Assembly: GCA_038850285.1 (NCBI GenBank)
Contig: JAWCMA010000001.1
Location: 53,168 to 117,167, forward strand
Reading direction: 5' to 3'
Source: Methanocellales archaeon
GTDB lineage: Archaea; Halobacteriota; JAWCLZ01
Length of the DNA: 64,000 nt
Positions 17,732-36,022 of this stretch are shown here, one piece after another (position 1 is the stretch's first letter; each line of letters starts with the position of its first letter). The notes below the pieces were generated by a model. It searched no databases, was not told where the DNA came from, and saw only the letters and a list, made by a program, of their open reading frames with translations. A program made the position numbers and the translations under genes.

Positions 17732-17804
17732 CTCATTTAATTGCAAGTTTCTTCATTTAATTTTTGCAAGTTTCTTTATACTTGAACTGGTAATTCTATT
17801 AACA

Positions 17805-18626: not shown

Positions 18627-18689
18627 AGAAATTAATTGTGATCTAAATGGAGAAATTAAAGTAATGTGATCTAAATGGAGAAATTAAAG
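18617..18689. repeat. tandem duplication with 28-bp period (TGTGATCTAAATGGAGAAATTAAAG x2 plus a partial copy)
   Basis: Copies at 18637-18661 and 18665-18689; partial copy at 18617. Confidence 0.9.
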
Positions 18690-19100: not shown

Positions 19101-19140
19101 ATGGAAAAAGATTTATCGCTCTGCACCATCTTAGAAAAAT

Positions 19141-19785: not shown

Positions 19786-19824
19786 CTCGTGGGAAATTTT
19801 ATATCTAAATAGTTCTAATTCTGC

Positions 19825-20211: not shown

Positions 20212-20765
20212 GAATCGCAGTTGCAATCACAGGTGCAAGTGGAGTGCTATATGGCATTCGATTACTTGAGGTACTTAGAAACCATCGAGAGGTTGAAAGC
20301 CATTTTATCGTCTCCAAAAATGCTAAGCAGATAATTAAGATAGAGAGCAATAAAACCATTGAGGAGATAAAAGCACTGGCGAATTATTCATATGAAGAGG
20401 ATGAATTACTAGCACCCATAGCAAGTGGTTCCTTTGAGTTGGATGCCATGGTTATAATACCCTGCAGCATGAAAACCCTAGCTGCGATTGCAAATGGCTA
20501 TGCAGATAATCTGATAACTAGAGCAGCTGACGTTTGCCTTAAGGAAGAGCGTAGGTTAATACTCGTGACCAGAGAAACTCCACTTAGCACGATGCACCTT
20601 GAGAACATGCTTAAAGCTAGAAAAGCCGGTGCGATTATCATGCCAGCTTCACCAGCATTTTACATTAAATATGAAAAAGTAGAGGATTTAATTGATTTCA
20701 TCGTAGGCAGAGTACTCGATCTTCTCCACCTTGAGCATAGCTTATATAAAAGGTGGGGCGAATGA
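20208..20765 (+). CDS. ubiX: flavin prenyltransferase UbiX
   Basis: ITGASG, IASGS, PCSMKT, RAADV.LKE.R, RETP, PAFY. Confidence 0.95.
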   Translation: MRIAVAITGASGVLYGIRLLEVLRNHREVESHFIVSKNAKQIIKIESNKTIEEIKALANYSYEEDELLAPIASGSFELDAMVIIPCSMKTLAAIANGYADNLITRAADVCLKEERRLILVTRETPLSTMHLENMLKARKAGAIIMPASPAFYIKYEKVEDLIDFIVGRVLDLLHLEHSLYKRWGE

Positions 20766-22021
20766 GCTTGAGGGATTTTTTAGAGAAATTAAGGCTAGAG
20801 GGACTGCTCCTCAACATCGAGGAAAGGGTTTCACCTGAATTTGAAGCGCCTAAAATCGCTAGAGAGCACTCTAAACCGATTTTCTTCAAAGATGTGGCTG
20901 GGAAAAAAGCAGTGATGAATGTAATTTCAAGTCGGGAAATACTAGCACTTGCTCTAGGAGTAAGGAAAGAGGAAATAGTGAGATATCTCGCCGGGGTAAA
21001 GCCTGAGGGTGAAATAAAAATTGTGGAAGAGATGCCTTTTCTGGAGAGGCAATTCAAAGCTGATTTATCTAAGCTCCCTATAATGCGGCATTATCGAGAG
21101 GATGCAGGTAAATATATAACCGCTGGAGTTGTGATTTCGAGACTTGGCGAGGAATACAATGCCTCGGTGCATCGCATGCTTGTGCTTGATAAGAGAACCC
21201 TTGCGGTTAGATTAGTGCCACCTAGGCATTGCTATCTAATGCATAAAAAAGCCGCGGAGCAACGTAGGGAGCTACCGGTTGGAGTTGCAATTGGAGTGGA
21301 CCCTCTTTTCTTGCTTGCAGCATGCACTAGAGTGCCTGAGTGCAGGGAATTTCAATATACTAGTGCACTATCTGGCAAACCACTTGAGCTTTATGAGCTT
21401 GAGAATGGAGTTCAAGTGCCAGATGCTGAAATAGTATTAGAAGGCTATGTAGACCCTGAGGCTAGAGCTAGAGAGGGGCCATTTGTGGATATAACTGGTA
21501 CTTTAGATATAGTCAGAGAGGAACCAGTGATAAAGCTTAATAGAATATACATGCGTAGAGATGCAATCTATCAAGGTATACTCCCAGGTGGAAGTGAGCA
21601 TAAACTATTGATGGGCGTGCCATATGAACCTAAAATTTATAAAACAGTTGGCGAGGTTGCTCGAGTGAGAAATGTATTACTCACTGAGGGGGGGTGCTGT
21701 TATTTCCACGCGGTGGTGCAAATAGAAAAGCAAACTGAGGGCGATGGCAAAAATGCAATTCTAGCTACCTTCACTGCTCATCCGAGTTTGAAGCACGTTG
21801 TAGTGGTTGATGATGACATCGATATTTATAATCAAGTGGAAGTGGAATATGCAATTGCCACGCGCGTGCGGGGAGATAGAGATATATTGATAATACCCCG
21901 CGCTAGGGGTTCATCTTTAGATCCAGCTATTGCAGAGGATGGAACTACTACCAAAGTAGGGATAGATGCCACGAAGCCTTTGATTGGAAGAGAGAAGTTC
22001 AAGCGAGTTGAAATGGAATAG
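20762..22021 (+). CDS. UbiD family decarboxylase, probably anhydromevalonate phosphate decarboxylase
   Basis: D.GKYIT.G, N.SVHR, EGPFVD, GG..YFHAVV, VVDDDID, GSSLDP, KVGIDAT. Confidence 0.88.
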   Translation: MSLRDFLEKLRLEGLLLNIEERVSPEFEAPKIAREHSKPIFFKDVAGKKAVMNVISSREILALALGVRKEEIVRYLAGVKPEGEIKIVEEMPFLERQFKADLSKLPIMRHYREDAGKYITAGVVISRLGEEYNASVHRMLVLDKRTLAVRLVPPRHCYLMHKKAAEQRRELPVGVAIGVDPLFLLAACTRVPECREFQYTSALSGKPLELYELENGVQVPDAEIVLEGYVDPEARAREGPFVDITGTLDIVREEPVIKLNRIYMRRDAIYQGILPGGSEHKLLMGVPYEPKIYKTVGEVARVRNVLLTEGGCCYFHAVVQIEKQTEGDGKNAILATFTAHPSLKHVVVVDDDIDIYNQVEVEYAIATRVRGDRDILIIPRARGSSLDPAIAEDGTTTKVGIDATKPLIGREKFKRVEME

Positions 22022-22091
22022 CTTTAGGTTTTCAATAGCTAGTTTTTAATAGCTCTAGGTTTTTCAATAGCTAGTTTTTAATAGCTCTAGG
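22017..22091. repeat. about 32-bp tandem duplication of the trm1 3' end
   Basis: AATAGCT(T/C)TAGGTTTT(T)CAATAGCTAGTTTTT x2 plus a partial third copy. Confidence 0.85.
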
Positions 22092-23149
22092 ATTTCCTTC
22101 AAATTTGCATTGGTTTTGAAGCCAATGCTTGAGAAATGCGTTCTACTTGCTTTAAAACCACACTTCATAAGTTTCTCTATAACCTCTTCTATTTTAAGGG
22201 GTGCTATTTTGAGTATTTTGCATAACTTATGATGGTTATAATAAGAGAAAACTTGGATTTCTTCCCTGCATAGTGAGAGTAATTTCCTAGCTTGCTCTTT
22301 CTTCCCGAGCTCTTTTTTCTCAACTTCCTTGAGAGTTTTGCTTAAGAATCTTTTATCCCCTAGCTCGCCCAACCAGAGGATACCTCCAGCTTTCAAAATC
22401 CCCCCACAGTTTGGGCACTTAGCTGGTAATTGTGGAATGATTCCCTTGATAGATGCTCTATATAGGCATGTGAAGCAGTGCACGAAATAGCCAAGTTTTT
22501 CTAATGTTAAATCTGCCTTCGCTGCTCCCTTCTCTATCTTTATGTAAACTCTATAGTAATGCTGCTCTGCATATGAAAGCAGAGGCTTTGCTGCTTTATC
22601 ATATTTCGCGAGCTCACGCGCGATTTTACCTATCAATATTCGCACTCCAACTTCATTGTAGTACTCAGTTTTAAGTGGAAATGCTTGATAATTGCGAATC
22701 CCTGCTTTGAGATGTGAACCGCATAGTGGGGCTGTATCTGTTGCAGTAATGCAGAGCAGTTTTCTAGCTGATCTACAAGCTGCATCGAGAAATGGCACTG
22801 GAGATCCAAAGGGGTCGATATCAACGATGTCGAAGTGCTCCTTAATGAGGAGTATGTTTGCATTCATATTGCTTGGCCAGGCTAGGTCTTCTAAGCGATT
22901 GAGAGCTATATTTTGCTTAATTGCCTCGTAAGCGCTGGTATCTATATCATTCACAGTGCATTTGAGTCCAACTTCCTTAGCAATTCTAATTCCGCGAATC
23001 CCACTTGCAGCTAAAGCATCGAGAAATGTCATACCTAGGTTGGAGAAGGCTGCTATGCATGCTATGCTTATATCTCTATTTAGCTCCATTTTTGGGTTGT
23101 AGAAAACTTTACTTGGTTTAATCACCACTTGACCTTCTTTAATCAGCAT
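22064..23149 (-). CDS. trm1: tRNA (guanine26-N2)-dimethyltransferase Trm1
   Basis: VFYNP.MELNRD, ASGIRGIR, DIDPFGSP, TATD, Zn finger, SRTHF. Confidence 0.95.
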   Translation of the reverse strand: MLIKEGQVVIKPSKVFYNPKMELNRDISIACIAAFSNLGMTFLDALAASGIRGIRIAKEVGLKCTVNDIDTSAYEAIKQNIALNRLEDLAWPSNMNANILLIKEHFDIVDIDPFGSPVPFLDAACRSARKLLCITATDTAPLCGSHLKAGIRNYQAFPLKTEYYNEVGVRILIGKIARELAKYDKAAKPLLSYAEQHYYRVYIKIEKGAAKADLTLEKLGYFVHCFTCLYRASIKGIIPQLPAKCPNCGGILKAGGILWLGELGDKRFLSKTLKEVEKKELGKKEQARKLLSLCREEIQVFSYYNHHKLCKILKIAPLKIEEVIEKLMKCGFKASRTHFSSIGFKTNANLKEILELLKTSY

Positions 23150-23651
23150 TCAATCTCCCCGCTATCTCCCTCGCAAGGGAATCTCTATTATGCTCATTAA
23201 GCACATATACCTCGAAGGTGGATCGAATTCTCTGGATTAAAGGGTGTGTGGAACGCTGGTGAAATGTAACTAGCATGGATTTATTACTCTGCAGTGCAGT
23301 TTCAACTGCTAATAGGAAGTCCTTTGAATACAGCTCCATTGGAGCAATTTCATCTATAACTATTAAATCACAATTCAAGGCATTCTTAATCGCTTCTACT
23401 CCAACTTCATTTAAATCCCTTAGGTTCACCTTGTATTTGCCAACAATTGGGCCCTCTTTTTGATTCACATGTGCAAGTATGCCTTTTTTACCAGTTGCGA
23501 TATCAACTATTTCAAATCCAACTCTCTGCCTCCCAACTCTTATATCTCCGCTTATCATCCCACCTGCTTTTTTGCTTATGCTTGAGATCACTTTTTTGCA
23601 GAGAGTTGACTTTCCAATCCCAGGCCTGCCTGTGATAGCAATTCTAATCAT
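23139..23651 (-). CDS. nucleoside-triphosphatase, THEP1 family
   Basis: ITGRPGIGKST, RVGF, VGKY.V, IDEIAPME. Confidence 0.9.
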   Translation of the reverse strand: MIRIAITGRPGIGKSTLCKKVISSISKKAGGMISGDIRVGRQRVGFEIVDIATGKKGILAHVNQKEGPIVGKYKVNLRDLNEVGVEAIKNALNCDLIVIDEIAPMELYSKDFLLAVETALQSNKSMLVTFHQRSTHPLIQRIRSTFEVYVLNEHNRDSLAREIAGRLNAD

Positions 23652-23694
23652 GCAAAAGCAATATCACAGCGCAGGCATATTTAGATTATGAATT

Positions 23695-24852
23695 ATGAAT
23701 ATGATTTCAATTAAGATCAAGCAAGATGTGCTCTTCTGGATCTATTTCTCCATCTTTTTAATTTCACTCAGCTTAGGCGCTTATAATCCGCTCATCCCAC
23801 TTTATGCTCAGCAACTTGGTGCTTCTTACTTGGACTTAGGAATAATTGGATCTGTTTGGGCTCTGCCCTATGTATTCCTCCCTATTTTAATAGGGATGTT
23901 TTCTCAGAAGATAAATAGACAATGGATATTTTTCACTGGAATTGGAAGTAGTGCTTTAACTGCAGCTCTATTTCCATTTGCTCAAAATGTATCTCATTTA
24001 ATTGCAATTCGAATCTTTGGAGGCATAGCCTATGCATTTATGTGGCCAGTAGTAGAGGCAATAATCTCAGACATCACCACCAACGAGGCTAGAGCAAAAG
24101 CAATGGGTAGATATAGCTTCTCCTGGGGAATTGGCTTCTTAATTGGGCCAGCGATTGGGGGATTTGTTCTTGAAAAAAGCGGTTTTAATTTACTCTTCTT
24201 AATCTCCTTCTTAATTGGCCTCCTCGCAAGTATTATTGCAGTTAATTGCTTGAAAATTCCAAGTGCTAGGGGGGAAGTTGTATTTTCTCAGATTAATTTT
24301 TCAATGAAAACTCTTGCATCGCTCTATCTCGCAATAGCTAGTTACAGCTTAGCACTTGGCACTGTTTTCTCCCTCTTCCCTGCTTATGCCAGTGTGAAAG
24401 GTATTACTTCCCTGGAGATTGGCATTCTCTTCGCAGTTCTAGGCTTAGTTAGAGTAGTGGTTTTCCTTCAATCTGAAGCGATTTCGAAGATTGGGGAGAA
24501 AAAAGCTATATTAATTGCCTTGCTAGCGCAATCTTTGATATTGCCATTGCTACCTTATCTCCAGAGTTTCTTAGCCTTGCTTTTTGGCGTGGCTTTGCTT
24601 GGGATAACTCTAGGCATTCTCTCGCCCATAACCATAGCTGCAGTTTCAAAGATGATCCCTAGGGAAAAAATTGGACTTGCGATTGGTGCAGTTGAAACCA
24701 CCTTTGGCATAGGGTGGACTCTAGGTCCGCTAATCGGGGGAATTGCAGCTCAAAATCTAGGCGAGGAATATCCATATATAATAGCGGGTTTCATCAGCTT
24801 ATTCGTTGCAATTCCAATTACTAGAGAAATCCTAAAGCATAAATATGGATAA
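23695..24852 (+). CDS. MFS transporter
   Basis: About 12 TM segments; GFLIGPAIGG and GWTLGPLIGG. Confidence 0.88.
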   Translation: MNMISIKIKQDVLFWIYFSIFLISLSLGAYNPLIPLYAQQLGASYLDLGIIGSVWALPYVFLPILIGMFSQKINRQWIFFTGIGSSALTAALFPFAQNVSHLIAIRIFGGIAYAFMWPVVEAIISDITTNEARAKAMGRYSFSWGIGFLIGPAIGGFVLEKSGFNLLFLISFLIGLLASIIAVNCLKIPSARGEVVFSQINFSMKTLASLYLAIASYSLALGTVFSLFPAYASVKGITSLEIGILFAVLGLVRVVVFLQSEAISKIGEKKAILIALLAQSLILPLLPYLQSFLALLFGVALLGITLGILSPITIAAVSKMIPREKIGLAIGAVETTFGIGWTLGPLIGGIAAQNLGEEYPYIIAGFISLFVAIPITREILKHKYG

Positions 24853-24870
24853 GATTAAAAACCAACTGCT

Positions 24871-25356
24871 ATGAAACAGCTCTGGGCTCCTTGGCGAATG
24901 AAATACATAAAATCTAAAAAAAAGCAGAAATGCTTCCTCTGCCTTGAGTCAAAAAAGGATGAAGAACTAGTGATATATAAAGGTGAGAAGTGCTTCGTTA
25001 TCTTAAATGCCTATCCCTATAACAATGGACATATCATGATAGCTCCCTATCGACATATCTTGAGGCTTCAGGACTTAAGTGAGGAGGAAACTCGAGAGTT
25101 CTTCGATCTAACTAAGCAAAGCTTGGCAGTTTTGGATCAAACGATGAAGCCAGAGGGCTACAATATCGGCATCAACTTAGGTAAAGCAGCTGGAGCTGGA
25201 GAGGCACATTTGCACCTCCACGTAGTACCAAGGTGGGTAGGTGATACAAACTTCATGCCCATCTTAGCAGATGTCAAGGTAATGCCTGAGCATCTAGATC
25301 GAAACTGCAAAATATTGAGAAGGGCATTTAAGAAGCATGGCACTGGAAGTATTTGA
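24871..25356 (+). CDS. HIT family hydrolase (Ap4A phosphorylase-like)
   Basis: LWAPWR, CFLC, NAYPYNNGH, HLHLHVVPRW.GD.NF. Confidence 0.92.
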   Translation: MKQLWAPWRMKYIKSKKKQKCFLCLESKKDEELVIYKGEKCFVILNAYPYNNGHIMIAPYRHILRLQDLSEEETREFFDLTKQSLAVLDQTMKPEGYNIGINLGKAAGAGEAHLHLHVVPRWVGDTNFMPILADVKVMPEHLDRNCKILRRAFKKHGTGSI

Positions 25357-25882
25357 AGAGAGAAACGAGTCGAATTTCTCAGGCAGCATTATTCACATCG
25401 ATACAGTTGGGAATATTAGAAATGAGTTCACTAATTCTAGAAGATACTCTGAGTTATCGCCTTTTATTGTTGGATTAATCGATAGAAATAAACTCAAAAT
25501 TATGTATGCCCTAGATAAACCAAGCATATCATTATTTCGCGGTCGAGTAATTGCGTTGATCAATGAATTCCAGAAGCCATACTTTGCCTTCAATGCAACG
25601 GTTGTTCAAGCAGTTCTATATCACTTCACTGGCCAGAAGATCGATATAGCTGGAGAGCTAAATAGAAAAGCCTTTGAAAGTAGGCTATTTGCAATCCACG
25701 CTTTAAACATACCTCAATATGGCGATCCCTTCTCTGATCAAGATAAACTCTGCACTCAAGCTTGGCTCAAGGGAGAGATTGAGAAATGCGTGGCACACGT
25801 TAGAGCTTGTCTCTTAAAAGAACGGGATATATTTATAAAGCGCGGGTTTCGAAAGCCTGAGGAAATAAAGTTGAGGAGGTGA
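25337..25882 (+). CDS. hypothetical protein, possibly a degenerate RNase H-fold/DEDD exonuclease
   Basis: 181-aa ORF overlapping the HIT gene; IIHIDT, FAFN and AHVRACLLKE are spaced like ExoI/II/III (inference). Confidence 0.55.
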   Translation: MALEVFEERNESNFSGSIIHIDTVGNIRNEFTNSRRYSELSPFIVGLIDRNKLKIMYALDKPSISLFRGRVIALINEFQKPYFAFNATVVQAVLYHFTGQKIDIAGELNRKAFESRLFAIHALNIPQYGDPFSDQDKLCTQAWLKGEIEKCVAHVRACLLKERDIFIKRGFRKPEEIKLRR

Positions 25883-26006
25883 AGGGGTTTAAAAGAGAAG
25901 TCTAAGGTTTAAAAGTGTAAAGGAGCTTAAAAAAGAAGTGAATTAATATTTTAAGAACTGATAAAAAGTGTGAATGTTAAAAAATTAAAAATGGAAAAGG
26001 TGTGAA

Positions 26007-26231
26007 ATGCGTGTAACGAGAAAACTTGAAACTGGCGATTCCTACTTCGATGTCTATTTCTGCGATGAATGCGGGAGAGAAGTGAATCCAATGATGTGCG
26101 TGGAAATAAGACTGCCATTTAACCATGAATCAATACTATGGTGCCTTGCGTGCTTGAGAAAACTGGGTTTATATAATGTTATTATGCGCTATCAAAGTCA
26201 CTTCGCAGATAAAGATAGAGTGTGGAGATAA
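26007..26231 (+). CDS. small Zn-finger protein
   Basis: CDECG...WCLAC; AAGGTG upstream of the ATG. Confidence 0.65.
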   Translation: MRVTRKLETGDSYFDVYFCDECGREVNPMMCVEIRLPFNHESILWCLACLRKLGLYNVIMRYQSHFADKDRVWR

Positions 26232-26245
26232 CTTGAGGAGATAAC

Positions 26246-26851
26246 TTGAGGGAAGAAGTTGTATTTCCAAGTGAGGAGGGCCTCTTATATGGCACGCTTT
26301 TTGGGGTTGGCGAGCTAGGTGTGGTGCTCTGTCCTCCTCATCCTTTATATGGTGGTTCTAGGTTTGACCATCGCTTAATTGAAATTGCACTTGAACTTGA
26401 GAGAAATGGAATAACTGCCCTCACTTTTGACTACCGCAGAGAGTTCGCCCGTGGGAGAGGTGAAATTCAAGATGCAATATCTGCACTTCGCTATTTTCGA
26501 ACCCGAGTTAAAAAAATTGGTATCTTTGGGTATTCATTTGGAGCAGTGGTTGCCTCCAACGCTGCCTTTAAATTTGATTTAAGCATAAGTGGAAGTGCAT
26601 TCCTCGCGATTTTGAAGCAAACTGATGATATTCAAGCTATGGTGAATCAAAGGTCACCCAAGCTCTTCATACATGGAAAAAGAGATCAGATCGCTCCCTA
26701 TGCTGAGTTCGAGGAGCTATATCAAAGTGCAAGCGAACCTAAGCAGTGCTTGATTCTTGAAGACGAAGACCACTTTTTCCACCATAGCGTTGAAGAAATT
26801 GCTATCTCAGTGGCGAAATTCTTCAAAAGGTGCTTCGAATTTTATAAATAA
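26246..26851 (+). CDS. alpha/beta hydrolase (COG2945-like)
   Basis: PPHPLYGG, GYSFG nucleophile elbow, HG..D, DHFF. Confidence 0.9.
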   Translation: MREEVVFPSEEGLLYGTLFGVGELGVVLCPPHPLYGGSRFDHRLIEIALELERNGITALTFDYRREFARGRGEIQDAISALRYFRTRVKKIGIFGYSFGAVVASNAAFKFDLSISGSAFLAILKQTDDIQAMVNQRSPKLFIHGKRDQIAPYAEFEELYQSASEPKQCLILEDEDHFFHHSVEEIAISVAKFFKRCFEFYK

Positions 26852-26872
26852 CTCTATATTTTAACCATAGTT

Positions 26873-28483
26873 CTATAGCTTTTTAACTACCCTCTCTATA
26901 ACTTCACTTGGGCTGATTGCTTCAAGTGTTCTAGCTGTTATATCCTCTAGCATGACCTCAATTGCCAATTTAAGGGCTTGCTCATCCACATATAAAATTC
27001 GATGTGCATTTGTCTCTCTACTTCTAGCTGAGAAATAAAAGGGAAGCGTCAGGGCAGAGGCAAGCTGAAGGCATTTATATATAGCGCGTGGAGAAGCGTG
27101 CACTAATTGATCTTCTTCCACGAATTCCTTTACGAAGATTTTAAGGCTCAAGGTAACTCTCTTGATTTGATCCTCTAGGAACTGTATCTTAGCTGGCTTG
27201 TATTTCCACATCCCAGTGTTTATGGCATAGATCAAGGTTACGTGGTCTCTAATTAGCTTTGGAGTTATCTCTTCATATCTACCTACACCTAAAGCGTGTC
27301 TCTCAATTGACTCCACTATAGAGAGGAATCTATCCTTGGTCATGCGGTGCAAGCGGCAGAAGCAGCGGTCTTCAATTGCACGGAAATTTGGATCAGGCAC
27401 GGTTAATCTATAGCCCCTTCTCTCTACTTTTACATTGTAATTTGCATTCAAGAAGGAGGTGAAAACATATGGTCCAATTGTTTCATGCGCTGATTCATAT
27501 TTCAATGGCTTTTGCTCCATCGCGAGTTTGAGTCTCTCCACCATTCCACGTTCATGGAAGAACCACTCATTGAACTCCGGGACTAAGAAGACCATTTTCT
27601 TGCCTTCGTAGTACTGCCCCATTTGGAGAAACATATATGGAGTTATGCCCCCGCAGTATCTATATCTCCCAGGTATGCCATGTGGCTCGAGCTGGAGTTT
27701 TTCATTGCCCATCACAAAATCTATACTGGAATAAGTTTTTCCAGTTCCAATATCCCCGAAGAAAGCAAGGTGAAAGCCTGTACTTGTGAGGCGCTCGCCA
27801 TTTGGCTTGAGTACTTCCACATCTGCAATTCCAAATAACTGGCTCCATGAGAGGAGTACGTCTATAGCTGCCACCCCACCATATTCCTCGCAGTATCTAT
27901 AAATCGAGGTCAAGTCAATTTGCTTCGCGAATTCAATAACTTTCTCTTCATCAATTTCCTTGAGATAATTCTTCAAGCACGAGTCCATTTTTTTGACCAA
28001 TATCTGCTCGCTGGGCTTGGTCTCTTCTTTTATAGTGGTCTTGGTTTTTCTTCTTATGTACTCCATGAGGTGCTTTGCATTTGGCACTATGTATCGAGCG
28101 AAGTGATGTTTATAGCTCTCCACCGGGCGGATTTGAATTTGATAGGATTCTTCTTTTTCATGGAGAGCAATGAAGAAGTAATGCTCATAGGTATGCAGCA
28201 AGCTTGAAATTGCATCTTTAATTAACTTTTCATCCGCATAAGTTTTGTCAGCTTCAATCACAATTCCATCAGGTGCTATTTCTATTACATCTCGAATTAT
28301 CTCTCTCCCAATTGCCATTCTAGCATTTCTCACTAGTTCTTCCCATTCTTCTCTACCGAAGAGGAAGGTGCCAGCTTCATCGTTTATGCTACGAGTCGCT
28401 AGTTCCTCTGCAGTAAAAATGCCTATGCTATTGAGATCTTTCATTCGCTTTCTACCTATTCCAGAGATTTCAAGCAGCTCCAT
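26873..28483 (-). CDS. HhH-domain / MCM-like AAA+ ATPase
   Basis: N-terminal ISGIG...L.SIGI.T.EELA HhH; GDIGTGKT Walker A; VPEF Walker B variant; LAMEQ; ANYN; EDR; SPR. Confidence 0.72.
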   Translation of the reverse strand: MELLEISGIGRKRMKDLNSIGIFTAEELATRSINDEAGTFLFGREEWEELVRNARMAIGREIIRDVIEIAPDGIVIEADKTYADEKLIKDAISSLLHTYEHYFFIALHEKEESYQIQIRPVESYKHHFARYIVPNAKHLMEYIRRKTKTTIKEETKPSEQILVKKMDSCLKNYLKEIDEEKVIEFAKQIDLTSIYRYCEEYGGVAAIDVLLSWSQLFGIADVEVLKPNGERLTSTGFHLAFFGDIGTGKTYSSIDFVMGNEKLQLEPHGIPGRYRYCGGITPYMFLQMGQYYEGKKMVFLVPEFNEWFFHERGMVERLKLAMEQKPLKYESAHETIGPYVFTSFLNANYNVKVERRGYRLTVPDPNFRAIEDRCFCRLHRMTKDRFLSIVESIERHALGVGRYEEITPKLIRDHVTLIYAINTGMWKYKPAKIQFLEDQIKRVTLSLKIFVKEFVEEDQLVHASPRAIYKCLQLASALTLPFYFSARSRETNAHRILYVDEQALKLAIEVMLEDITARTLEAISPSEVIERVVKKL

Positions 28484-28560
28484 TTCGAGGATCACTATAG
28501 ATTGTTTTTTGAAGATAAAAACTTTTACATAGGGGAAAAAAGAAATAAAGAAATTGGACT

Positions 28561-28707
28561 ATGGGTTTGTGTTTAGATTGTAGAATTAAACTTGAAGCTA
28601 AACTAGCTGAGGAGGATATATTTTTTGAGTTTTTAGAGGCTTTTCAAGAGAAGCCTAAGCACGTTGGAGAGATCTGCGAATGCTGTGGAAGGCAATTCTT
28701 TGATTAG
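28561..28707 (+). CDS. 48-aa Zn-finger microprotein (absent from the ORF track)
   Basis: MGLCLDCRIKLEAKLAEEDIFFEFLEAFQEKPKHVGEICECCGRQFFD; two CxxC pairs; fills the gap. Confidence 0.6.
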   Translation: MGLCLDCRIKLEAKLAEEDIFFEFLEAFQEKPKHVGEICECCGRQFFD

Positions 28708-30428
28708 CCTCTGGCTCTCTGCTGTTCATACATTTCGATGATCTCCTTCACTGTATTTGCATCTCCAGCGCTTTTATCCTGCCTTATGAATCCCACCGCG
28801 CGGGGGAAGCGCAGAGCGTAACCTATTTCTTTTTCAGTTCTCCCGCAAGTGTGAAGGGGGGAGCGGGTTATTTCATCAGCCATAACTGTTATGACGTACT
28901 TCGGTTCAACCCATACATCTGGGATGATGAGGGAATCTACTCTAGCGTGGCGATGTGGAATTGCAATTTCATCAAGCATCCCCTTGAGTTTTACCCAGTT
29001 TTCCTCGCTGAATCCAGATCCAACTTTTGCAATTGTCTTGAAGGTATCGCTTTCTTCATCGTAAACTGAGCATAAGATAGCTCCAATTCCAAGTTTTGCT
29101 CTAAAGCCCTTTCCCTTGAAATAGCCCACTATACAGACATCTATAGTATCAGCTAGTTCGCCTTTGTAGCTTCTCTTGAGCTTTATCCAGTTAAAATTTC
29201 GAGCACCTGCAGAATATGGAGCATCTAATCTCTTTGCAACAACTCCCTCCAGGCCTTTTTCCACGAATTCCTCGAAATAGTTTTTAATCTCCGTGGGATC
29301 GCCTGTGTAGATCACCTTTGCAACATCTATTGGTCCATCTGATGTGATTATTTGCTCCATTTTCTCGCGGCGCTCAATATATGGCTTTTGAGTATAATCC
29401 ACTCCATCCACAAATAGTAGTTCGAATGCAAAGAGCTTCAAGGGATATTCCTTGGCTAGTTCCTCCACGCCGTGTTTGCGCTTGCGTGTTATTGTAACTT
29501 GAAATGGAAAGAGCTCTCCTGTTTCTTCATTATATGCAAGGGCTTCTCCTTCTATAATTGCTTGCTTCGCTTTAATTTGCCTCTTAGCTGCTTCCACGAT
29601 CTCTGGGAACATCGCGGTGGTGCGCTCGAGATTTCTCGAGAAAATTTCCACCTTATCTCCATCTTTATGTATCTGGCATCTAAAGCCATCGTATTTAGGT
29701 TCAATCGCAGCTTTACCTATCTTTTGAACTATATCCTCGGATGAGGGGAGGCGCTCGCAAAGTGCCATTCTAATTGGGGAGAAAACCTTTATTTTGAATT
29801 CCCTTATTCCCTTTTCTCCCTTCTCAAAGAGGGTTTTAGCTACTAGTCCTAGGTCTGAGCATAGGTTATATGCTCGCTCAAGTTCAGGTCGAAATTTTCT
29901 AGTTCCAGCTTTAGCTTGTGCTAGAGCGTCTAATATGGTTGGATCTCCTATTCCAAGTCTTAGCCTTCCTGCTACGAATCTAGCGATATATTTTGATTCA
30001 ATGGGTGAAGCATTGGAAAATAAATTAGCTAGAATTGTTATCTTTTTCTCAACGCTTCCTTCACCAGTTGTTAGAGCCACTTTTAAAAGTCGGTCGTAAA
30101 CCTCGCTTACCTCCAACTCTGAGCCTTTGCTTCTGGAAAATTTCTCAGCTACGATTCCCAAGTCACCTGCATTCTTGAATTCCTCCTCAACCCTCTGGAG
30201 AGTTACTCCAGCTGATTGAGAAATCGCTCGAATAAGCAATTTCTCGCTAACCCCCATTTCAACTCCGCGAAATGGAGGTAGAATTTGCTCTTGACATAGA
30301 TATATTATCTTCTCAATTTCATTGCTATCCGCTTTCTTGAAAAGCTCAGCTAGAATATTGAACATCTCTAGCCTCTTTGTAGTTGCCTCGAGTTTTTCAA
30401 AGTAACTTGCTAGCTCTGAAAATTTCAT
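28704..30428 (-). CDS. lig: ATP-dependent DNA ligase
   Basis: DNA-binding domain with GDLG, KYDGFR motif I, EGE, EGVVAK, WIKLK, LRFPR. Confidence 0.96.
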   Translation of the reverse strand: MKFSELASYFEKLEATTKRLEMFNILAELFKKADSNEIEKIIYLCQEQILPPFRGVEMGVSEKLLIRAISQSAGVTLQRVEEEFKNAGDLGIVAEKFSRSKGSELEVSEVYDRLLKVALTTGEGSVEKKITILANLFSNASPIESKYIARFVAGRLRLGIGDPTILDALAQAKAGTRKFRPELERAYNLCSDLGLVAKTLFEKGEKGIREFKIKVFSPIRMALCERLPSSEDIVQKIGKAAIEPKYDGFRCQIHKDGDKVEIFSRNLERTTAMFPEIVEAAKRQIKAKQAIIEGEALAYNEETGELFPFQVTITRKRKHGVEELAKEYPLKLFAFELLFVDGVDYTQKPYIERREKMEQIITSDGPIDVAKVIYTGDPTEIKNYFEEFVEKGLEGVVAKRLDAPYSAGARNFNWIKLKRSYKGELADTIDVCIVGYFKGKGFRAKLGIGAILCSVYDEESDTFKTIAKVGSGFSEENWVKLKGMLDEIAIPHRHARVDSLIIPDVWVEPKYVITVMADEITRSPLHTCGRTEKEIGYALRFPRAVGFIRQDKSAGDANTVKEIIEMYEQQRARG

Positions 30429-30490
30429 TCACACCACATGGGATATCTTTTATAATCACGTCTAATAATTCTAATGGTGTAATCACAAGT

Positions 30491-31669
30491 ATGGCAAGCA
30501 TCGAAGACCGAGTCCTTCTACTACTTTCAATCAAAGAGCCTGGGAAGAAAATCGATTTTGAGCATATAAGGGAAAAGATAGTTAGAGATGAGAAATCAAG
30601 GGATAAATCAAGGGATAAATCAAGGGATAAATCAAGGGATAGAGATACGATAGAGGATACAATAGAGAATGCAGCAGGTGGTTTAGTTAATGAATTGAAG
30701 AAGTGCCTTGAAACTCTAGCGAGGCAGGGGTTAATTAAGGAAGAAAGAGGCAGCTATGCTATAACTGAGAAAGGGGAAAGGAGAATTCTAGAGCGGTTAA
30801 AGCAAGTGGGCGGGGATTTGAATCTATCCTATCGCTTGGTCTTGAAGGCCAAGAAATACTATCCAGTTATTGGAGAAGCAATGCTTCCATTCCTCAGGGA
30901 TAGAGCTGTTAGTGTGATCAAAGTTTTCAGCGATGAAGTTGAGCCGTTGAGTAAAATAAAGCCACTCTTCGTTAGATATGCTCGCTATAAACCTATTCCA
31001 GTTTTCATAGAGATCAAAGACCTTGAGACTTTATTGAGATACGTTGACCAACACGCCATTGATTTCATACCATATGTTCACAGACTTCAAGCTAGAGAGC
31101 CTGACTGGTTCATCCTTGATCTCGACGCGGGTGAAGAACTTCAAAAGCACCCTATGAGTTTTGAGCTGATTAAAAATGTGGCTCAAAAGGCAGTTGAGGT
31201 ACTAGAGGAAAATGAAATCGAGCCTTGCATAAAATTTAGCGGCTCGAGAGGGATTCAAATCTGGGCAAAGTTTGATAATAGCAAGCTTCAAAGCGAGGGG
31301 GATTTATTTGCAGTTTATAGAAGACTTGCTGTGACTGTGCAGCAAAAAACTGAGCAAAAACTTCAGAAGGAGTTTAAAAACTTGATCAACCCCAACAAGC
31401 CAATTACCACTTCCCAAGTTGCTAAGAAAGAAGAAAGAGCTGATCAAATTTTGATAGACTGGAGCTCTATGAAGCCAAATGGAGATGTTAGAGCGCCCTT
31501 CAGCATGCACTATAAAACTGCTTTAATCTCAACTCCTATACCTAAATCACATCTCCTTGAATTTGAAATTCAAGAAGCTCAGCCTGAGTATGTGATGAGA
31601 AATCTAGCTAAATTAACCTCCGCCTTTGAACTTAGAGCTTCTAATCCGACTAAGCTGCTGAGGAATTGA
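30491..31669 (+). CDS. LigD polymerase-domain-like primase-polymerase (AEP) with N-terminal winged helix
   Basis: PDWFILDLD, KFSGSRGIQ, ILIDW, RAPFS, STP; N-terminal L..L...GLI......Y.IT.KG wHTH; ATG 30491. Confidence 0.82.
   Translation: MASIEDRVLLLLSIKEPGKKIDFEHIREKIVRDEKSRDKSRDKSRDKSRDRDTIEDTIENAAGGLVNELKKCLETLARQGLIKEERGSYAITEKGERRILERLKQVGGDLNLSYRLVLKAKKYYPVIGEAMLPFLRDRAVSVIKVFSDEVEPLSKIKPLFVRYARYKPIPVFIEIKDLETLLRYVDQHAIDFIPYVHRLQAREPDWFILDLDAGEELQKHPMSFELIKNVAQKAVEVLEENEIEPCIKFSGSRGIQIWAKFDNSKLQSEGDLFAVYRRLAVTVQQKTEQKLQKEFKNLINPNKPITTSQVAKKEERADQILIDWSSMKPNGDVRAPFSMHYKTALISTPIPKSHLLEFEIQEAQPEYVMRNLAKLTSAFELRASNPTKLLRN
30593..30667 (+). repeat. in-frame 12-bp tandem repeats (AAATCAAGGGAT x4, KSRD; GATACRATAGAG x2, DTIE)
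   Basis: Read directly from the sequence. Confidence 0.92.
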
Positions 31670-31670
31670 A

Positions 31671-32909
31671 ATGAGGATATATAGCTTAAGCAGTAGCAAT
31701 AGATGTGTCTTCTGCAAGGGATCTAAATTCCTCTGCGGCAAAGAGCGATGTCCCATTCTTGTGAAGCTATATGCGCAGCAGCAAACTAAGCCATTGATCG
31801 ATTCCCTGAGTTTAGAGGGCTCCTCACCCCCTGGGGTTTTCATTGGTAGAATTGGCTATCCCTATGTTTCAATAGGTCCTTTAGTTCCACCTATCCAAGG
31901 TGATACTTTTCTATTAGATACCCCTGAGCTCTGGGTGGGCAAGAGCATAGATGAAATAGTGAATTTCAGATTCCAGCTCGTTAGAGGGAAATATAGAGTG
32001 AATGTGAGAAACGTTGAGGGTGAAAGGATAGTTGAGGCTACTCGAGAACTCGCTATGGCTTTAAACCCAGCTGATGTGGAGGTTGAGTTTCATAAAAAAC
32101 CCCGGGTAGAAATAGCGCTTGATGATGAAGTGCAGCCTCACGGCCCGAGTGCACCTTTGAAGAAGATTGATGTAAATTCAATTAAAATAGACAGGAGAAT
32201 TGAAAAAGCATATAGCGATACTGATTTAAAGGCAAGTGAAGCGGTTTTGAATCTCTATAGAAGTGGAGTGTTGATATCCAAAATACAGCGTGCCTTCAGC
32301 GCAGGCGTATTAGGGGAGAAAAAAGCTAGGCGATTTGTGCCAACTAGGTGGAGCATCACCGCGGTTGATAGCATTATCTCAAGTACATTGATGGAAAGAG
32401 TTAAAGCAAATCCCTTGATAAATGAATTCCAAATTTATGAATCAATCTCACTTGATAATAGATTCATCGTGATCCTCATGCCATTTTCTTGGAGCTATGA
32501 ATTAATTGAAGCTTGGTATCCAAATACAATTTGGAACCCAACTGGTAGAGAAACTGTGATATTCTCTGACCACGAGGGCTTCTCAGGGAGAACCACTTAC
32601 GCGAAAATTGGAGGATGCTATTACGCCGCGAGACTAGCTGTTTGCGAATATCTTGAAAAAATAGGGAGGCAAGCTAGAGTATTAATTCTTCGGGAAGCGC
32701 ATCCTGGCTATATAATGCCAGTTGGCGTGTGGAATGTGCGGGAGAGTGTAAGAAATGCTCTTCGAAGCGCACCTCATAGGTTTAGCAGTTTGAGGGAGGT
32801 ATTCAATTATATCACAGCCAAGCTCTGCATACCTATTCAAAAGTGGCTGCTTCATAGTACGCTACTCAAGCAGCTGCTCCATCAAAGGACTCTTGAGGAT
32901 TATACTTAG
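31671..32909 (+). CDS. nreA: DNA repair protein Nre
   Basis: CVFCKG..LCG..RCP, SPP.VFIGR.GYP, VPTRWSITAVD, GGCYYAARL, PVGVW.VRE, C-terminal PIP-like QRTLEDY. Confidence 0.92.
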   Translation: MRIYSLSSSNRCVFCKGSKFLCGKERCPILVKLYAQQQTKPLIDSLSLEGSSPPGVFIGRIGYPYVSIGPLVPPIQGDTFLLDTPELWVGKSIDEIVNFRFQLVRGKYRVNVRNVEGERIVEATRELAMALNPADVEVEFHKKPRVEIALDDEVQPHGPSAPLKKIDVNSIKIDRRIEKAYSDTDLKASEAVLNLYRSGVLISKIQRAFSAGVLGEKKARRFVPTRWSITAVDSIISSTLMERVKANPLINEFQIYESISLDNRFIVILMPFSWSYELIEAWYPNTIWNPTGRETVIFSDHEGFSGRTTYAKIGGCYYAARLAVCEYLEKIGRQARVLILREAHPGYIMPVGVWNVRESVRNALRSAPHRFSSLREVFNYITAKLCIPIQKWLLHSTLLKQLLHQRTLEDYT

Positions 32910-32918
32910 AGGGGAAAT

Positions 32919-33731
32919 ATGCAAGTGAGAATTAGGGAGATAAAATGTAAAACTGCACTCTCTCCCTCTCTTTTACCTGGCTATGACTATGCTTTAAATC
33001 CATATAGAGGCTGCGAGCATGCTTGCATATACTGCTATTCCCCCTCAGTGCTTAGATGCAGGGAAAAATGGGGGACATTTGTAGAGCCAAAGGTGAATAT
33101 AGCTCGCGTACTATCTCGAGAGCTAAGGGATAAGCCAAAGGGAGTTGTTGGAATAAGCAGTGTCACTGATCCCTATCAGCCTCTGGAGAGGAAATATGAG
33201 CTGACAAGGAGATGCTTGGAATTACTTTTGAAGTATAATTTTCCCATCTCAATTCAAACCAAATCAGCATTAGTAATGCGAGACCTAGATTTGATCAAGC
33301 AGTTTTCTAATAAAGACGTTGGGTTAACAATCACCACCATTGAAGATGAATTGCGGAGGAAATATGAACCCATTGCGAGTAGCGTGAAAGAGCGATTGCT
33401 TGCTTTGAGAAAGATAGCTGAGTGTGGAATCACCAGCTGGGTCTTTATTGGTCCCATAATGCCATTTATAAGCGATAGAAATGGCTCTCTTGAAGAGCTG
33501 CTTAGAGCAATTGCAGATTCAGGGGTGAGCTACATCTTAATCGATAAATTGAGAATGAAGCCAGGGATCTGGGATAATATTGAAAAATTCCTCGTTGATT
33601 ATGATGCAACATTGATTCCTAGTTACAAGGAGATATTATTCAAGCGGGATGATAGTTACTTTATTAATGTGAGGCGTAGAGTAATGGAGCTATGCAAGCA
33701 GCTAGGTTTGAAGTGCGAGTCTTGCTTTTAG
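32919..33731 (+). CDS. spore photoproduct lyase-like radical SAM protein (COG1533)
   Basis: LNPYRGCEHACIYCY, SSVTDPYQP.E, QTKS.L..RD.D, EP.AS...RL. Confidence 0.88.
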   Translation: MQVRIREIKCKTALSPSLLPGYDYALNPYRGCEHACIYCYSPSVLRCREKWGTFVEPKVNIARVLSRELRDKPKGVVGISSVTDPYQPLERKYELTRRCLELLLKYNFPISIQTKSALVMRDLDLIKQFSNKDVGLTITTIEDELRRKYEPIASSVKERLLALRKIAECGITSWVFIGPIMPFISDRNGSLEELLRAIADSGVSYILIDKLRMKPGIWDNIEKFLVDYDATLIPSYKEILFKRDDSYFINVRRRVMELCKQLGLKCESCF

Positions 33732-33741
33732 GCATTAGCAT

Positions 33742-33906
33742 TCATTTCTTCTTCAAGCCCTTGAGCATTTCCTCGATTTTTGGCTCAGTAACGATGTGGC
33801 CTAGCAAGCGAACCTCTACTTCAATGCTGCCGCATTTGGGGCATTTTTCAGGTCGCTCGACAGCTAAGAATTCGTGGCTGCATTTCTTGCATAGCCAGTT
33901 TGGCAT
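33742..33906 (-). CDS. small Zn-ribbon protein
   Basis: MPNWLCKKCSHEF...PEKCPKCGS. Confidence 0.65.
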   Translation of the reverse strand: MPNWLCKKCSHEFLAVERPEKCPKCGSIEVEVRLLGHIVTEPKIEEMLKGLKKK

Positions 33907-34533: not shown

Positions 34534-34725
34534 ATGCAAAGCACAGAAAGATATTATATAATTGGCTTGCTGTCCTTCACTATAGGAGAATTGATTCTCA
34601 GCTTGGTTGAAAGCGATTTCAAATTCCCCAGCTATATCGTAGTTTCCACCTTGTATACATATTTCTTCATAAAAGCTGCAAAAGCAGCGTTTAAAAAAGC
34701 CAAGACGAAAAATTATGAACTCTGA
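34534..34725 (+). CDS. small putative 2-TM membrane protein
   Basis: Two hydrophobic stretches; overlaps the start of the downstream pilin-like gene. Confidence 0.4.
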   Translation: MQSTERYYIIGLLSFTIGELILSLVESDFKFPSYIVVSTLYTYFFIKAAKAAFKKAKTKNYEL

Positions 34726-36022
34726 AGATGCAGTTTCAGATGCAATTGGATTCATTTCAATATTTGCCTTAACCATTGCCTCAGTGGGATTTATATTCAC
34801 ATTGAGCTTGCCTGAAATCCTCGATTCCCAAGAGGTTGTTAAACTACAAAATATTGAGCAAGCATTCACAGTGCTTGATTCAAAAATTAGCTTAAGCGCA
34901 CTAGGCGAGTCACCATCTCAAGTTGTAGCACTAGATACCTCCAGCGGAAGCGCTGCAATTTTAAGCGATAGTTCACTGAAAATCCTAATGCGTCAGAGCG
35001 GAGTGGATCATATGATTTACAACAGCACCCTTGGAACTCTACTTTATGAATTAAATGGCGAAGAAATCGCATATGAAGGAGGCGGAGTGTGGAGGAAATA
35101 TGCAAATGGAGGTGTGGTGATGGTAAGCCCTCCTGAGTTTCATTACAATGGCGAGACCCTTACCTTTCCAATTATAAGATTGAATGGCAGTGCTAGAGTT
35201 GCAGGTGGCATTGCAACACTGCATGCTAATTCAGAAGGGATAACTGTATTCTTCCAAAATACAACTGCAAATCCGCTATTCCAAAACCCTGTTTATGGGA
35301 GTACTACCATTGTAATTGTTAAAAGCAAATACTATAAAGCTTGGGCGGAGTATATGCAGGAGCGCACTGAATTTCATGGCGTGGTTGCTCACGATAATCT
35401 AAGCGAAGTAGCAGCTTATTTAAATTCAAGGCCAGCTCCATCGATGAACTTCACCATCCCGCTTGATATAATTGGTCTAAATACCTCTAACTCCACGCCA
35501 GTCAGCAATTTTACATTTGAATTCTATAATGTGACCAGCAACTTCGAGCTTGAATTAATAGGCAGCAATTCTCAAGGAAGGAATTTGAGTATCACCATGC
35601 AAAAGAAATCAGGAGAGGGGACAGAGGGCATTGCGGTAGCTATATCTTATCAAGAGCAAGCCAAAGAAATTGAAAATTGGGAAGCAGTAAAATGGATTGC
35701 AATTGAAAATGAAACAGCCTTTATCAACCTTTTGAATACCTCCATAAATCTAAGTTATACAAGCAATGATAATTCCTGGAGCTGGCTCTATGAAGAGGTA
35801 CCATATAATAAAAGCTATACCAAAGGCATGCAAATTGATCTACCCCTTGCAATTCAGCATTACTTCCGCTTGCTCGGCCCTACTTTCACATTTAATTATG
35901 GCTCAAAACATCAAGGATTTAATGAAACCTCGGGCAGGGTTTATCTTCAATATGAATGCATGCCTCCTGTGATTACCTTTTTACATATAGTGGAACATAA
36001 AGTGAATTTAAATATAGTATAG
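34715..36022 (+). CDS. archaeal type IV pilin-like/adhesin protein with class III signal peptide
   Basis: EDA|VSDAIGFISIFALTI N-terminus, IAYEGGGVW, SPPEFHY..TLTFP, many N-x-S/T sequons. Confidence 0.75.
   Translation: MNSEDAVSDAIGFISIFALTIASVGFIFTLSLPEILDSQEVVKLQNIEQAFTVLDSKISLSALGESPSQVVALDTSSGSAAILSDSSLKILMRQSGVDHMIYNSTLGTLLYELNGEEIAYEGGGVWRKYANGGVVMVSPPEFHYNGETLTFPIIRLNGSARVAGGIATLHANSEGITVFFQNTTANPLFQNPVYGSTTIVIVKSKYYKAWAEYMQERTEFHGVVAHDNLSEVAAYLNSRPAPSMNFTIPLDIIGLNTSNSTPVSNFTFEFYNVTSNFELELIGSNSQGRNLSITMQKKSGEGTEGIAVAISYQEQAKEIENWEAVKWIAIENETAFINLLNTSINLSYTSNDNSWSWLYEEVPYNKSYTKGMQIDLPLAIQHYFRLLGPTFTFNYGSKHQGFNETSGRVYLQYECMPPVITFLHIVEHKVNLNIV

Follow-up and report, generated by a model that had tools for sequence, protein, structure and literature searches.

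The window analysed here, a stretch of 64,000 nucleotides from a Methanocellales archaeon (GenBank assembly GCA_038850285.1, contig JAWCMA010000001.1), encodes on its reverse strand a 536-residue ATPase of the AAA+ class. According to a structural model, its C-terminal module comes closest in fold to the MCM proteins; in front of this module stand a small α/β domain and a head with two helix-hairpin-helix (HhH) motifs, here written (HhH)2. The domains and motifs of the protein and the genes next to it are collected in Table 1.

The open reading frame (ORF) listed for the gene extends from 26873 to 28495 and has 540 codons. An in-frame ATG at 28483 gives the 536-residue protein, a GTG at 28495 is an alternative start, and the stop codon occupies 26873-26875. 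A TATA-like, A/T-rich stretch lies ~30-40 nt 5′ of the ATG and may be a promoter, judged by the archaeal promoter consensus. Transcription is weakly hinted at by a metatranscriptome RNA library from another study, which holds contigs of 307 and 202 nt identical to the gene at 27797-28103 and 28249-28450; DNA carry-over is possible. Just these two pieces of the ATPase gene are covered in the RNA run and the neighbouring ligase gene is uncovered; the uncovered parts carry no evidence. The DNA runs that contain the stretch are labelled as hot-spring metagenome.

The window protein stops at ...VVKKL, earlier than other Methanocellales orthologues. These end in a C-terminal tail, ...LP[KR]LFD[SG] or ...AKLYG(S) (columns ~700-713 of alignment A1, see below), which faintly resembles a PCNA-binding tail.

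Domain order, fold and motifs of the ATPase

An AlphaFold2 model was built with an alignment of 40 family sequences (alignment A1) that share 32-93% identity with the query. Its mean predicted local distance difference test score (pLDDT) is 86.2, and its predicted template modelling score (pTM) is 0.68. From the N- to the C-terminus, the model has five short helices (aa 1-62), a succession of β-hairpin, helix, β-hairpin and long helix (63-150), a disordered link (148-156), three helices (159-218), the five-stranded AAA+ core, and a helical lid that reaches the C-terminus.

In a Foldseek comparison with the PDB, ranks 1-50, as listed, are all MCM chains (E 1.1e-9 to 3.3e-8). The VIA search, which is independent of Foldseek and covers 48,161 representative chains, has MCMs in its first 11 rows, with Z 18.9-23.0 and root-mean-square deviations (rmsd) of 3.5-4.4 Å over 278-319 aligned residues; these comprise yeast, human, fly and worm Mcm2-7 subunits, archaeal MCMs, and MCM8/9 (Z 18.9-20.3). 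The match spans aa ~160-520 of the window protein. Next come BchI (Z 15.7), BrxL (15.5), RavA (15.2), a MoxR-type ATPase (14.5), ComM (13.3), SCCmec Cch (12.2), SaPIbov1 Rep (9.3) and RuvB (7.9), with generic AAA+ proteins at 9.3 or less. Because the gap exceeds 3 Z units and the MCM alignments begin in the helical neck, at model residues 154-176, the closest known fold of the modelled core and lid is MCM. As MCMs top both lists, a MoxR- or chelatase-like identity, the outcome that the initial annotation had named as fatal to its proposal, does not apply.

The module also carries the MCM motifs in MCM order and at near-identical spacing: Walker A, the Walker B glutamate, the AMEQ helix, the pre-sensor-1 hairpin, sensor 1, the Arg finger and sensor 2. 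With five canonical archaeal MCMs from related genomes (L086-L090) as reference, Walker A and Walker B are 58 residues apart (63 in MCM), Walker B and AMEQ 20 (17), AMEQ and sensor 1 26 (25), sensor 1 and the Arg finger 26 (28), and the Arg finger and sensor 2 93 (102). The gap between AMEQ and ANYN, 22 residues, equals that of MCM; the pre-sensor-1 hairpin is thus of MCM length. Walker A, the catalytic Glu, the sensor 1 Asn, the Arg finger and the sensor 2 Arg are all invariant in the 40 sequences of A1, down to 32% identity. The same holds for H268, G269, P271, G272, R275, Y276, G278 and G279 in the β2/pore-loop-1 region, for E330, G337, P338, Y339 and F341 at the pre-sensor-1 hairpin, for D364 and P365 between sensor 1 and the Arg finger, and for the R412/H414 pair and R518 in the lid region.

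The Walker B motif departs from this pattern, being [PT]EFN[DE] in the family and DE[FI]DK in MCM. In the window protein the catalytic Glu, E303, is retained, and Pro stands at the Asp position. Among 80 family proteins (from genomic loci, together with the window), this position is Pro in 65, Thr in eight, Lys in three, and Gln, Glu and Arg in one each, while the EFN motif is absent in one; Asp is found in 0/80 and another residue in 79/80. A separate count over 172 stored homologues with a P-loop gives Pro 123, Thr 43, Lys 3 and Gly 1, with the motif absent in two. Three positions after the Asp site (PEFN-D/E), an acid is present in 74 of the 80 proteins (Asp 68, Glu 6).

Unlike MCM, the window protein lacks the N-terminal A/Zn/OB tier: the model shows no OB barrel, and all MCM matches start at model residue 154 or later. 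Cysteines occur solely at positions 169, 198, 277, 374, 376 and 471, with no CxxC pair that could mark a Zn finger, and no C-terminal winged helix follows the lid in the model. The N-terminus is instead formed by the (HhH)2 head. Pfam HHH_5 matches aa 2-33 (E 2.2e-4, 22.1 bits), under the 27-bit cut-off. One hairpin has GIG at aa 8-10 and the second lies near G21 (SIGIF); G8, G10, K12, L28, A29 and R31 are invariant in 13 sequences of the HhH clade. Residues 1-158 were folded separately with these 13 sequences (alignment A2; pLDDT 89.4), and as modelled the two motifs form a five-helix (HhH)2 unit.

VIA matches to aa 1-62 have Z 7.4-9.7 and rmsd 1.5-1.9 Å over 54-62 residues. They include the thumb of Pol iota (Z 9.7, rmsd 1.6 Å, 55 residues, 26% identity), the POLQ helicase-like domain (9.3), the Rev1 thumb and AF1548 (8.6 each), NusA AR2 (8.4), the Rad51 N-domain (8.3), and a chain of the BCDX2 complex (RAD51 paralogue; RAD51C N-domain; 8.2). 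For the middle domain, uL23-like ribosomal chains were considered as relatives (Z 6.0-7.2); these values are inside the VIA background range, and no fold is claimed.

Table 1. Features of the ATPase gene and of adjacent genes, with positions in the window.
Feature	Position	Strand	Basis
Whole gene, predicted MCM-fold AAA+ ATPase with (HhH)2 head	26873..28483	-	ORF and translation, 536 aa
(HhH)2 domain, aa 1-62, RadA/Rad51-N / Y-family-polymerase-thumb type	28298..28483	-	Pfam sub-threshold, VIA, conservation
Small α/β domain, aa 63-150	28034..28297	-	Model: two β-hairpins, short helix, long C-terminal helix
Three-helix neck, aa 159-218	27830..28009	-	E159, Y197, G202, D208, L211 conserved family-wide
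AAA+ α/β core, aa 219-380	27344..27829	-	Model, Foldseek, VIA
Walker A GDIGTGKT, aa 243-250	27734..27757	-	G243, G246, T247, G248, K249 invariant (A1)
HGIPGRYRYCGGIT, aa 268-281, strongly conserved β2 / pore-loop-1 region	27641..27682	-	A1 and DSSP of model
Walker B variant VFLVPEFNE, aa 298-306	27566..27592	-	E303, F304, N305 invariant (A1)
LKLAMEQ helix, aa 318-324, counterpart of MCM HEAMEQQ	27512..27532	-	K319, A321, E323 invariant; spacing
Pre-sensor-1 β-hairpin, aa 326-340	27464..27508	-	Model strands 326-330, 335-340
Sensor 1 strand FLNANYN, aa 344-350	27434..27454	-	N348, Y349, N350 invariant; sensor Asn is N348 or N350
Arg-finger motif AIEDR, aa 369-373, counterpart of MCM SRFD	27365..27379	-	E371, R373 invariant; spacing
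Helical lid, aa 381-536	26876..27343	-	A1 and model
Sensor 2 in the lid, S464-P-R466 (ASPR, aa 463-466)	27086-27097	-	S464, R466 invariant (A1)
48-aa C4 zinc-ribbon ORF between ligase and ATPase gene	28561..28707	+	Two Cys pairs, conservation
Three-domain ATP-dependent DNA ligase, upstream same-strand neighbour	28704..30428	-	Pfam scan
Winged helix-turn-helix (wHTH) and LigD-type PrimPol	30383-31669	+	Pfam scan
Nre	31671-32909	+	Pfam scan
Radical-SAM / SplB-like gene	32919-33731	+	Pfam scan

Much of the initial annotation, which proposed an MCM-like AAA+ ATPase with an HhH domain in place of the MCM N-terminal region, agrees with these data. The motif strings that it quoted are present in the order given, with their key residues invariant, and the loss of the Walker B Asp that it saw extends across the family. 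No Zn-finger or OB domain was found, as it had said; its assignment of the head to the RadA/NusA type is right by fold, the Pfam match being sub-threshold, and the middle domain that it left unrecognised has gained no relatives. The likeness to MCM stands for the fold, by Foldseek and VIA; it does not extend to the helix-2 insert, which is missing, or to sequence, where no link to MCM emerged.

Family extent, clades and partner genes

The window protein belongs to a family that is mostly archaeal, with few bacteria, and patchy, and which no Pfam model covers. A Pfam scan of the protein gave no AAA family, including AAA_3, and an NCBIfam scan gave nothing useful. A word-indexed protein search scored 7,998 candidates and found 558 relatives at E ≤ 0.001. 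Identities of the 120 listed lie between 93% and 34%; a precomputed Pfam domain is absent in 119 and is HHH_5 in one. Their named hosts are Methanocellales, Micrarchaeia, Bathyarchaeia, Thermofilum, Hadarchaeota, Thermococci, Woesearchaeota, Fervidicoccaceae and Freyarchaeota, and among the cultured ones are Thermofilum adornatum, T. pendens and Fervidicoccus fontis. The only names other than ‘hypothetical protein’ are ‘MCM domain-containing protein’, assigned automatically to one UniRef record, and a few JGI labels that are evidently spurious. A HMMER profile search of 1.84 billion cluster representatives (50% identity) returned just 208 matches at E ≤ 0.001, of which 83 have E ≤ 1e-30; the family is therefore compact. 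ESM Atlas gave scores of up to 0.90 to unnamed viral clusters and 0.89 to one MCM/Mg-chelatase cluster, a lead that was not used. No description of the family was found in the full text of the open literature, subscription journals and supplements being outside the search.

Within the window's own genome and 20 relatives, the family profile matches four of 21 genomes: two of three in the window's own taxonomic family, the one genome of another family, and none in eleven further families. A scan with one genome per species (185,579 species) gave at least 356 family loci among 598 pattern matches. The best 80 were analysed: their 987 ORFs, including those of a 24-kb segment of the window, were clustered by BLASTP, and a FastTree phylogeny of the C-terminal module was made with 80 leaves. 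Locus L052, at which the family ORF was not called, was left out of the tree.

The (HhH)2 N-terminus is confined to a clade of Methanocellales and Micrarchaeota. The remainder of the family has another N-domain, with an F-R-G-x-Y-Y-T motif. This main-subfamily N-domain, which the window protein does not contain, is also found fused to TIR domains (P0288, P0291), to a Ras-like GTPase (P0303) and to a cytidylyltransferase-like domain (P0312), and behaves as a shuffled sensor or adaptor module.

Partner genes differ between clades. In the Bathyarchaeia clade, the ATPase gene is preceded on its own strand by a gene for a 540-560-aa coiled-coil protein, at a distance of ≤150 bp in 23 sources; 31 sources have this gene within 8 kb. 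This partner (for example L024:1453-3096, ~547 aa) contains a long coiled coil rich in Arg and Glu and matches no Pfam family; tblastn found no homologue of it in the window's genome. At 7/80 loci, in three separate clades, the ATPase gene directly follows a gene for a large DNA methyltransferase on the same strand, at gaps of -7 to 14 bp. Four of these are PglX-like N6/N4 enzymes (L009, L017, L023 and L079; gaps of -7 to 2 bp; PADLOC PglXI 1.5e-59), two of them in bacteria, namely Stahlbacteria (L009) and Levyibacteriota (L079), so that the Candidate Phyla Radiation is included. The other three (L051, L053, L061) are type IIG restriction endonuclease-methyltransferases (PADLOC 4.9e-102 and 3.4e-57; Pfam Eco57I, N6_Mtase, MmeI_Mtase). 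L031 and L045 have a methyltransferase within 1 kb on the opposite strand. The pairs of methyltransferase and ATPase resemble a two-gene restriction or BREX-like module, and they could not be seen by the earlier reader from the window sequence alone. A ‘mad8’ PADLOC match on a methyltransferase-linked homologue (E 0.0017) was too weak and was not used. The HhH clade, with 14 leaves, has neither the methyltransferase nor the coiled-coil partner at any locus.

Inteins are present in two of the best 150 of the 208 representatives. In P0196 the intein directly follows TEFNDWFKY (Walker B), and in P0181 it directly precedes AVEDR (Arg finger); one of the two has a LAGLIDADG domain and one a helix-turn-helix insert. 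Inteins at such sites are a pattern typical of DNA-metabolism ATPases.

A candidate DNA motor and competing readings

The protein is best read as an active, oligomeric MCM-type AAA+ ATPase that uses its HhH head in a non-replicative DNA translocase or remodeller, and not as a replicative helicase; we assign this reading a probability of roughly 0.55. The fold, the intact catalytic and trans-acting residues and the retained pore hairpin point to a working oligomeric ATPase of MCM type. In MCM and other AAA+ rings the Arg finger and sensor 2 act in trans, and their conservation makes sense only in an oligomer, which by analogy is probably a ring. A homodimer prediction for aa 157-536 with ATP and Mg scored 0.18 (mark 0.42) and is informative neither way. 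DNA is the most likely substrate because of the methyltransferase operons of other clades, the intein sites and the (HhH)2 head, which matches HhH modules that bind DNA in Y-family polymerases, POLQ and Rad51.

A replicative role is disfavoured by the missing OB tier and helix-2 insert, by the patchy distribution, and by coexistence with canonical MCM. PF00493 exceeds its cut-off in 20 of the 21 genomes. In the one that remains, the window's own assembly, no canonical MCM was found by PF00493 (the one weak match is the LonB protease) or by tblastn with the MCM of the same genus. A genome of that genus with 100% completeness (G002) carries both a canonical 706-aa MCM and this ATPase gene; the family therefore does not replace MCM. 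The missing MCM is most simply, and likely, an assembly gap, since the window's assembly has 1.28 Mb vs 1.5-1.6 Mb in its congeners, which have MCM. A separate, true MoxR is encoded on contig C10 of the same assembly.

In mechanistic terms, the motor module would be an MCM-type fold after loss of the OB/Zn tier, the helix-2-insert hairpin and the C-terminal winged helix, with the (HhH)2 head and the small α/β domain gained at the N-terminus in this lineage. The heads would tether the assembly to the DNA backbone in a sequence-independent manner. K249 and T250 of Walker A would bind ATP, and E303 would be the catalytic base of hydrolysis; sensor 1 (N348 or N350) would act in cis, and R373 and R466 would, as in MCM, reach the site from the adjacent subunit. 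The channel may be lined, and DNA moved, by the pre-sensor-1 hairpin together with the invariant R275-Y276-x-G-G loop. As to the direction and type of this movement, the mode may be akin to RuvA (HhH) and RuvB in one chain, or to BrxL and MCM8/9 as non-replicative MCM-type motors. The comparison with RuvA-RuvB is a working analogy only: both pair an AAA+ ring motor with an (HhH)2 clamp on the DNA backbone, and RuvB is a weak structural match, whereas RuvB belongs to another AAA+ clade, the window protein would unite both functions in one chain, and there is no evidence of Holliday-junction binding.

Several observations weigh against a DNA motor of MCM type. From the model we conclude that the helix-2-insert hairpin, one of the two pore hairpins of MCM and important for unwinding there, is absent, because a 9-residue deficit falls exactly at the MCM insert (22 residues from GITP to Walker B vs 31 from GLTA in MCM) and helix 282-292 is continuous, with no strand between β2 and β3. 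The pre-sensor-1 hairpin of MCM carries a conserved Lys at its tip; here the tip is not basic, there is no conserved Lys, and E330 is invariant. Because the Walker B Asp is never present, either Mg2+ handling must differ or hydrolysis may be slow. By sequence, a Pfam scan gave no MCM (PF00493) match at E ≤ 10, the family profile found no MCM and no relevant match among PDB sequences, and the cluster search did not retrieve the MCM superfamily, none of the best 150 of its 208 matches having canonical MCM architecture. With hhalign, the C-terminal part aligned to five archaeal MCMs over 17 P-loop columns only (probability 10%), so that profile similarity stops at the P-loop; P-loop-sized alignments were also obtained with six MoxR (0.7%) and four LonB sequences (35%). 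As the alignments, taken from relatives' genomes, are shallow (Neff about 2), this outcome is a weak negative. Moreover, NusA AR2, an HhH module that binds proteins rather than DNA, is among the matches of the head, the N-domain of most family members matches no recognised DNA-binding family, and no replication or repair gene is conserved as a neighbour across the 80 loci.

To our knowledge, MCM-type motors outside replication are few, namely MCM8/9, BrxL and a handful of mobile-element helicases. With at least 356 loci and 208 clusters at 50% identity, the family adds a conserved, unannotated branch, in which the OB/Zn tier and the helix-2 insert, both thought central to MCM action, have been lost and the Walker B Asp has changed. 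If DNA is still moved, it presents a minimal MCM engine. A broader and more tentative proposal is that this unrecognised, MCM-derived family is an exchangeable DNA-translocating engine of archaea and a few bacteria, its module, devoid of helix-2 insert and Walker B Asp, being joined to various front ends and partner proteins, among them the coiled-coil protein of Bathyarchaeia; with PglX-like or type IIG enzymes it would form a minimal BREX-like immunity pair and with (HhH)2 it would serve genome maintenance. Coupling to methyltransferases would offer a simpler model than BREX for an MCM-like ring in immunity, and the (HhH)2 form in Methanocellales and Micrarchaeota would be a prokaryotic counterpart of the split between MCM2-7 and the repair proteins MCM8/9. 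For annotation, a new family model is justified instead of ‘hypothetical protein’.

One alternative, a special case of the favoured translocase or remodeller, makes the ATPase the dedicated motor of the adjacent repair island (ligase, PrimPol, Nre, SplB-like), clearing or opening DNA at adducts or crosslinks in the manner of MCM8/9; it is close to the repair translocase for neighbouring genes that the initial annotation had suggested, and we consider it unlikely. The ATPase gene lies 220 bp downstream of the ligase gene on the same strand, and the order rSAM (radical-SAM)-Nre-PrimPol / ligase-ZnRibbon-ATPase recurs in all three copies of the genus, those of the window, contig C12 and G002. Since the assembly encodes no fewer than three full-length ATP-dependent ligases, this one may be accessory. 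MCM8/9 are among the top fold matches, and PMC4929162 describes NreA as required for repair of mitomycin-C damage in Haloferax. The adjacency, however, ends at the genus border. In the sister genus (G003/L001 and L110, 84% identity) solely the downstream flank is kept (hydrolase, orf181, HIT, MFS, NTPase, Trm1), and the 64% orthologue (G018, L111) shares no neighbour by tblastn. The link to ligase, PrimPol, Nre and radical-SAM genes is thus, as far as gene order tells, genus-specific. Other Methanocellales loci adjoin hyp hydrogenase-maturation genes, which at the more distant ones follow the ATPase gene in convergent orientation (named from their sequences, not by scan). The ligase block is absent at 79/80 public loci; Nre lies within 8 kb at one of the 80, a Bathyarchaeia locus (L068), ~2.5 kb away. 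The conserved opposite-strand ORF at 28561-28707 and the TATA-like stretch further argue for a promoter of the ATPase gene's own.

Equally doubtful for the window copy is a defence motor comparable to BrxL of BREX, of which it would be an orphan or re-purposed member. The type of architecture has a precedent: according to PMC12839542 and PMC10164562, BrxL, especially in its short type-4 form, carries DNA-binding domains at the N-terminus, then an AAA+ module of the MCM family, and has no MCM N-tier. Like BrxL, some clades of the family lie next to a PglX-type methyltransferase. The BrxL fold match, the PglX-like or type IIG genes immediately upstream at 7/80 loci in three clades including bacteria, the fusions of the main-subfamily N-domain to TIR and a Ras-like GTPase, and the patchy distribution (4/21 related genomes) are all in keeping with defence. 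Yet BrxL scores below the MCMs and has a Lon-like C-domain that the window protein lacks, and PADLOC gave no match to the window protein at E ≤ 0.01, BrxL included. The Pfam-scanned ORFs at 19.8-36 kb, several of them without a Pfam family, show no methyltransferase, nuclease or recognised defence gene, and none of the BREX genes (PglZ, BrxA/B/C, PglX); the HhH clade has a methyltransferase partner at 0/14 loci; and the downstream flank is syntenic across two genera, as with vertical inheritance. Searches of IMG/VR, GenBank phages and PLSDB plasmids yielded no relatives; archaeal viruses and plasmids are thinly sampled in these collections.

This last result also leaves the domesticated mobile-element helicase offered in the initial annotation without support. 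Like the MCM-like helicases of mobile elements (BcMCM, SCCmec Cch, SaPI Rep), the window protein joins an MCM-type AAA+ module to a non-MCM N-terminus, an arrangement reported for BcMCM of a Bacillus cereus prophage in PMC2715239; Cch and SaPIbov1 Rep, though, have far lower structural scores, and the N-terminus of the window protein contains neither a primase-like domain nor one of replication-initiator type.

Less probable still is a remodeller of proteins or complexes, a MoxR/RavA-like chaperone or a pore of unfoldase type whose HhH head binds protein. Classical AAA unfoldases bear an aromatic pore loop between β2 and helix 2, and the invariant R-Y-x-G-G loop occupies this position; the acidic rather than basic tip of the pre-sensor-1 hairpin and the protein-binding NusA AR2 among the head matches fit as well. 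MoxR/RavA and the Mg-chelatase BchI, which Iyer et al. reportedly placed in 2004 in the same AAA+ super-clade, share with the window protein the pre-sensor-1 hairpin and the overall arrangement of core and lid (Z 14.5-15.7). MCMs, on the other hand, beat the MoxR-type chains by 4-8 Z units with longer alignments, DNA is favoured by the methyltransferase operons and the intein sites, and no vWA, MoxR or chelatase partner is seen among annotated neighbour clusters or same-strand neighbours, most neighbouring ORFs being outside the scan. In its mode of action the ATPase may resemble an MCM or BrxL motor. Its sequence and N-tier place it outside the MCM family, and it is neither a BrxL nor a MoxR. 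A degenerate, non-hydrolysing ATP-binding scaffold, as the residues at the Walker B Asp position might suggest, is very improbable, given the invariant catalytic Glu, sensor 1, Arg finger and sensor 2, unexpected for a dead site, and the acid three positions on in 74/80 proteins.

Neighbouring genes and a block present twice

The wHTH-PrimPol, Nre and SplB-like genes form a tight same-strand block (30383-33731), divergent from the ligase gene. Adjacency of Nre and SplB is described in PMC4929162; in this genus, PrimPol and ligase extend the published pairing. The zinc-ribbon ORF overlaps the ligase stop codon by 4 nt. It is intact in contig C12 (87.5% aa identity) and in G002 (77%), and is therefore probably a real small gene that is part of the genus-specific neighbourhood and not of the ATPase.

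Several ATP-dependent ligase genes are present in the 1.28-Mb assembly. Besides the copy in the window (contig C1), these lie on C34, C12 and C8, and an interrupted one on C4, where either a TAG codon breaks the gene or its sequence is divided between two frames.

By tblastn, the gene order from UbiD to the radical-SAM gene is whole in contig C12, where the ATPase is 93% identical, and in G002 (91%). A 16-kb block of the window (17764-33744, G000:C1:70931-86911) has 81-83% nucleotide identity with G000:C12:1-15519. It spans from ~2 kb upstream of a proteasome-chaperone-like gene, through UbiX/UbiD, to the radical-SAM gene; the rest of C12 is unrelated. Either C12 comes from a second species of the genus and was co-binned, or the block is a large duplication of old date; the CheckM-type contamination estimate is only 1.5%. 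Beyond the block, the window encodes a DUF7289 and DUF7308 protein on the forward strand (34715-36022), preceded by three ORFs of 95-117 aa without a Pfam family.

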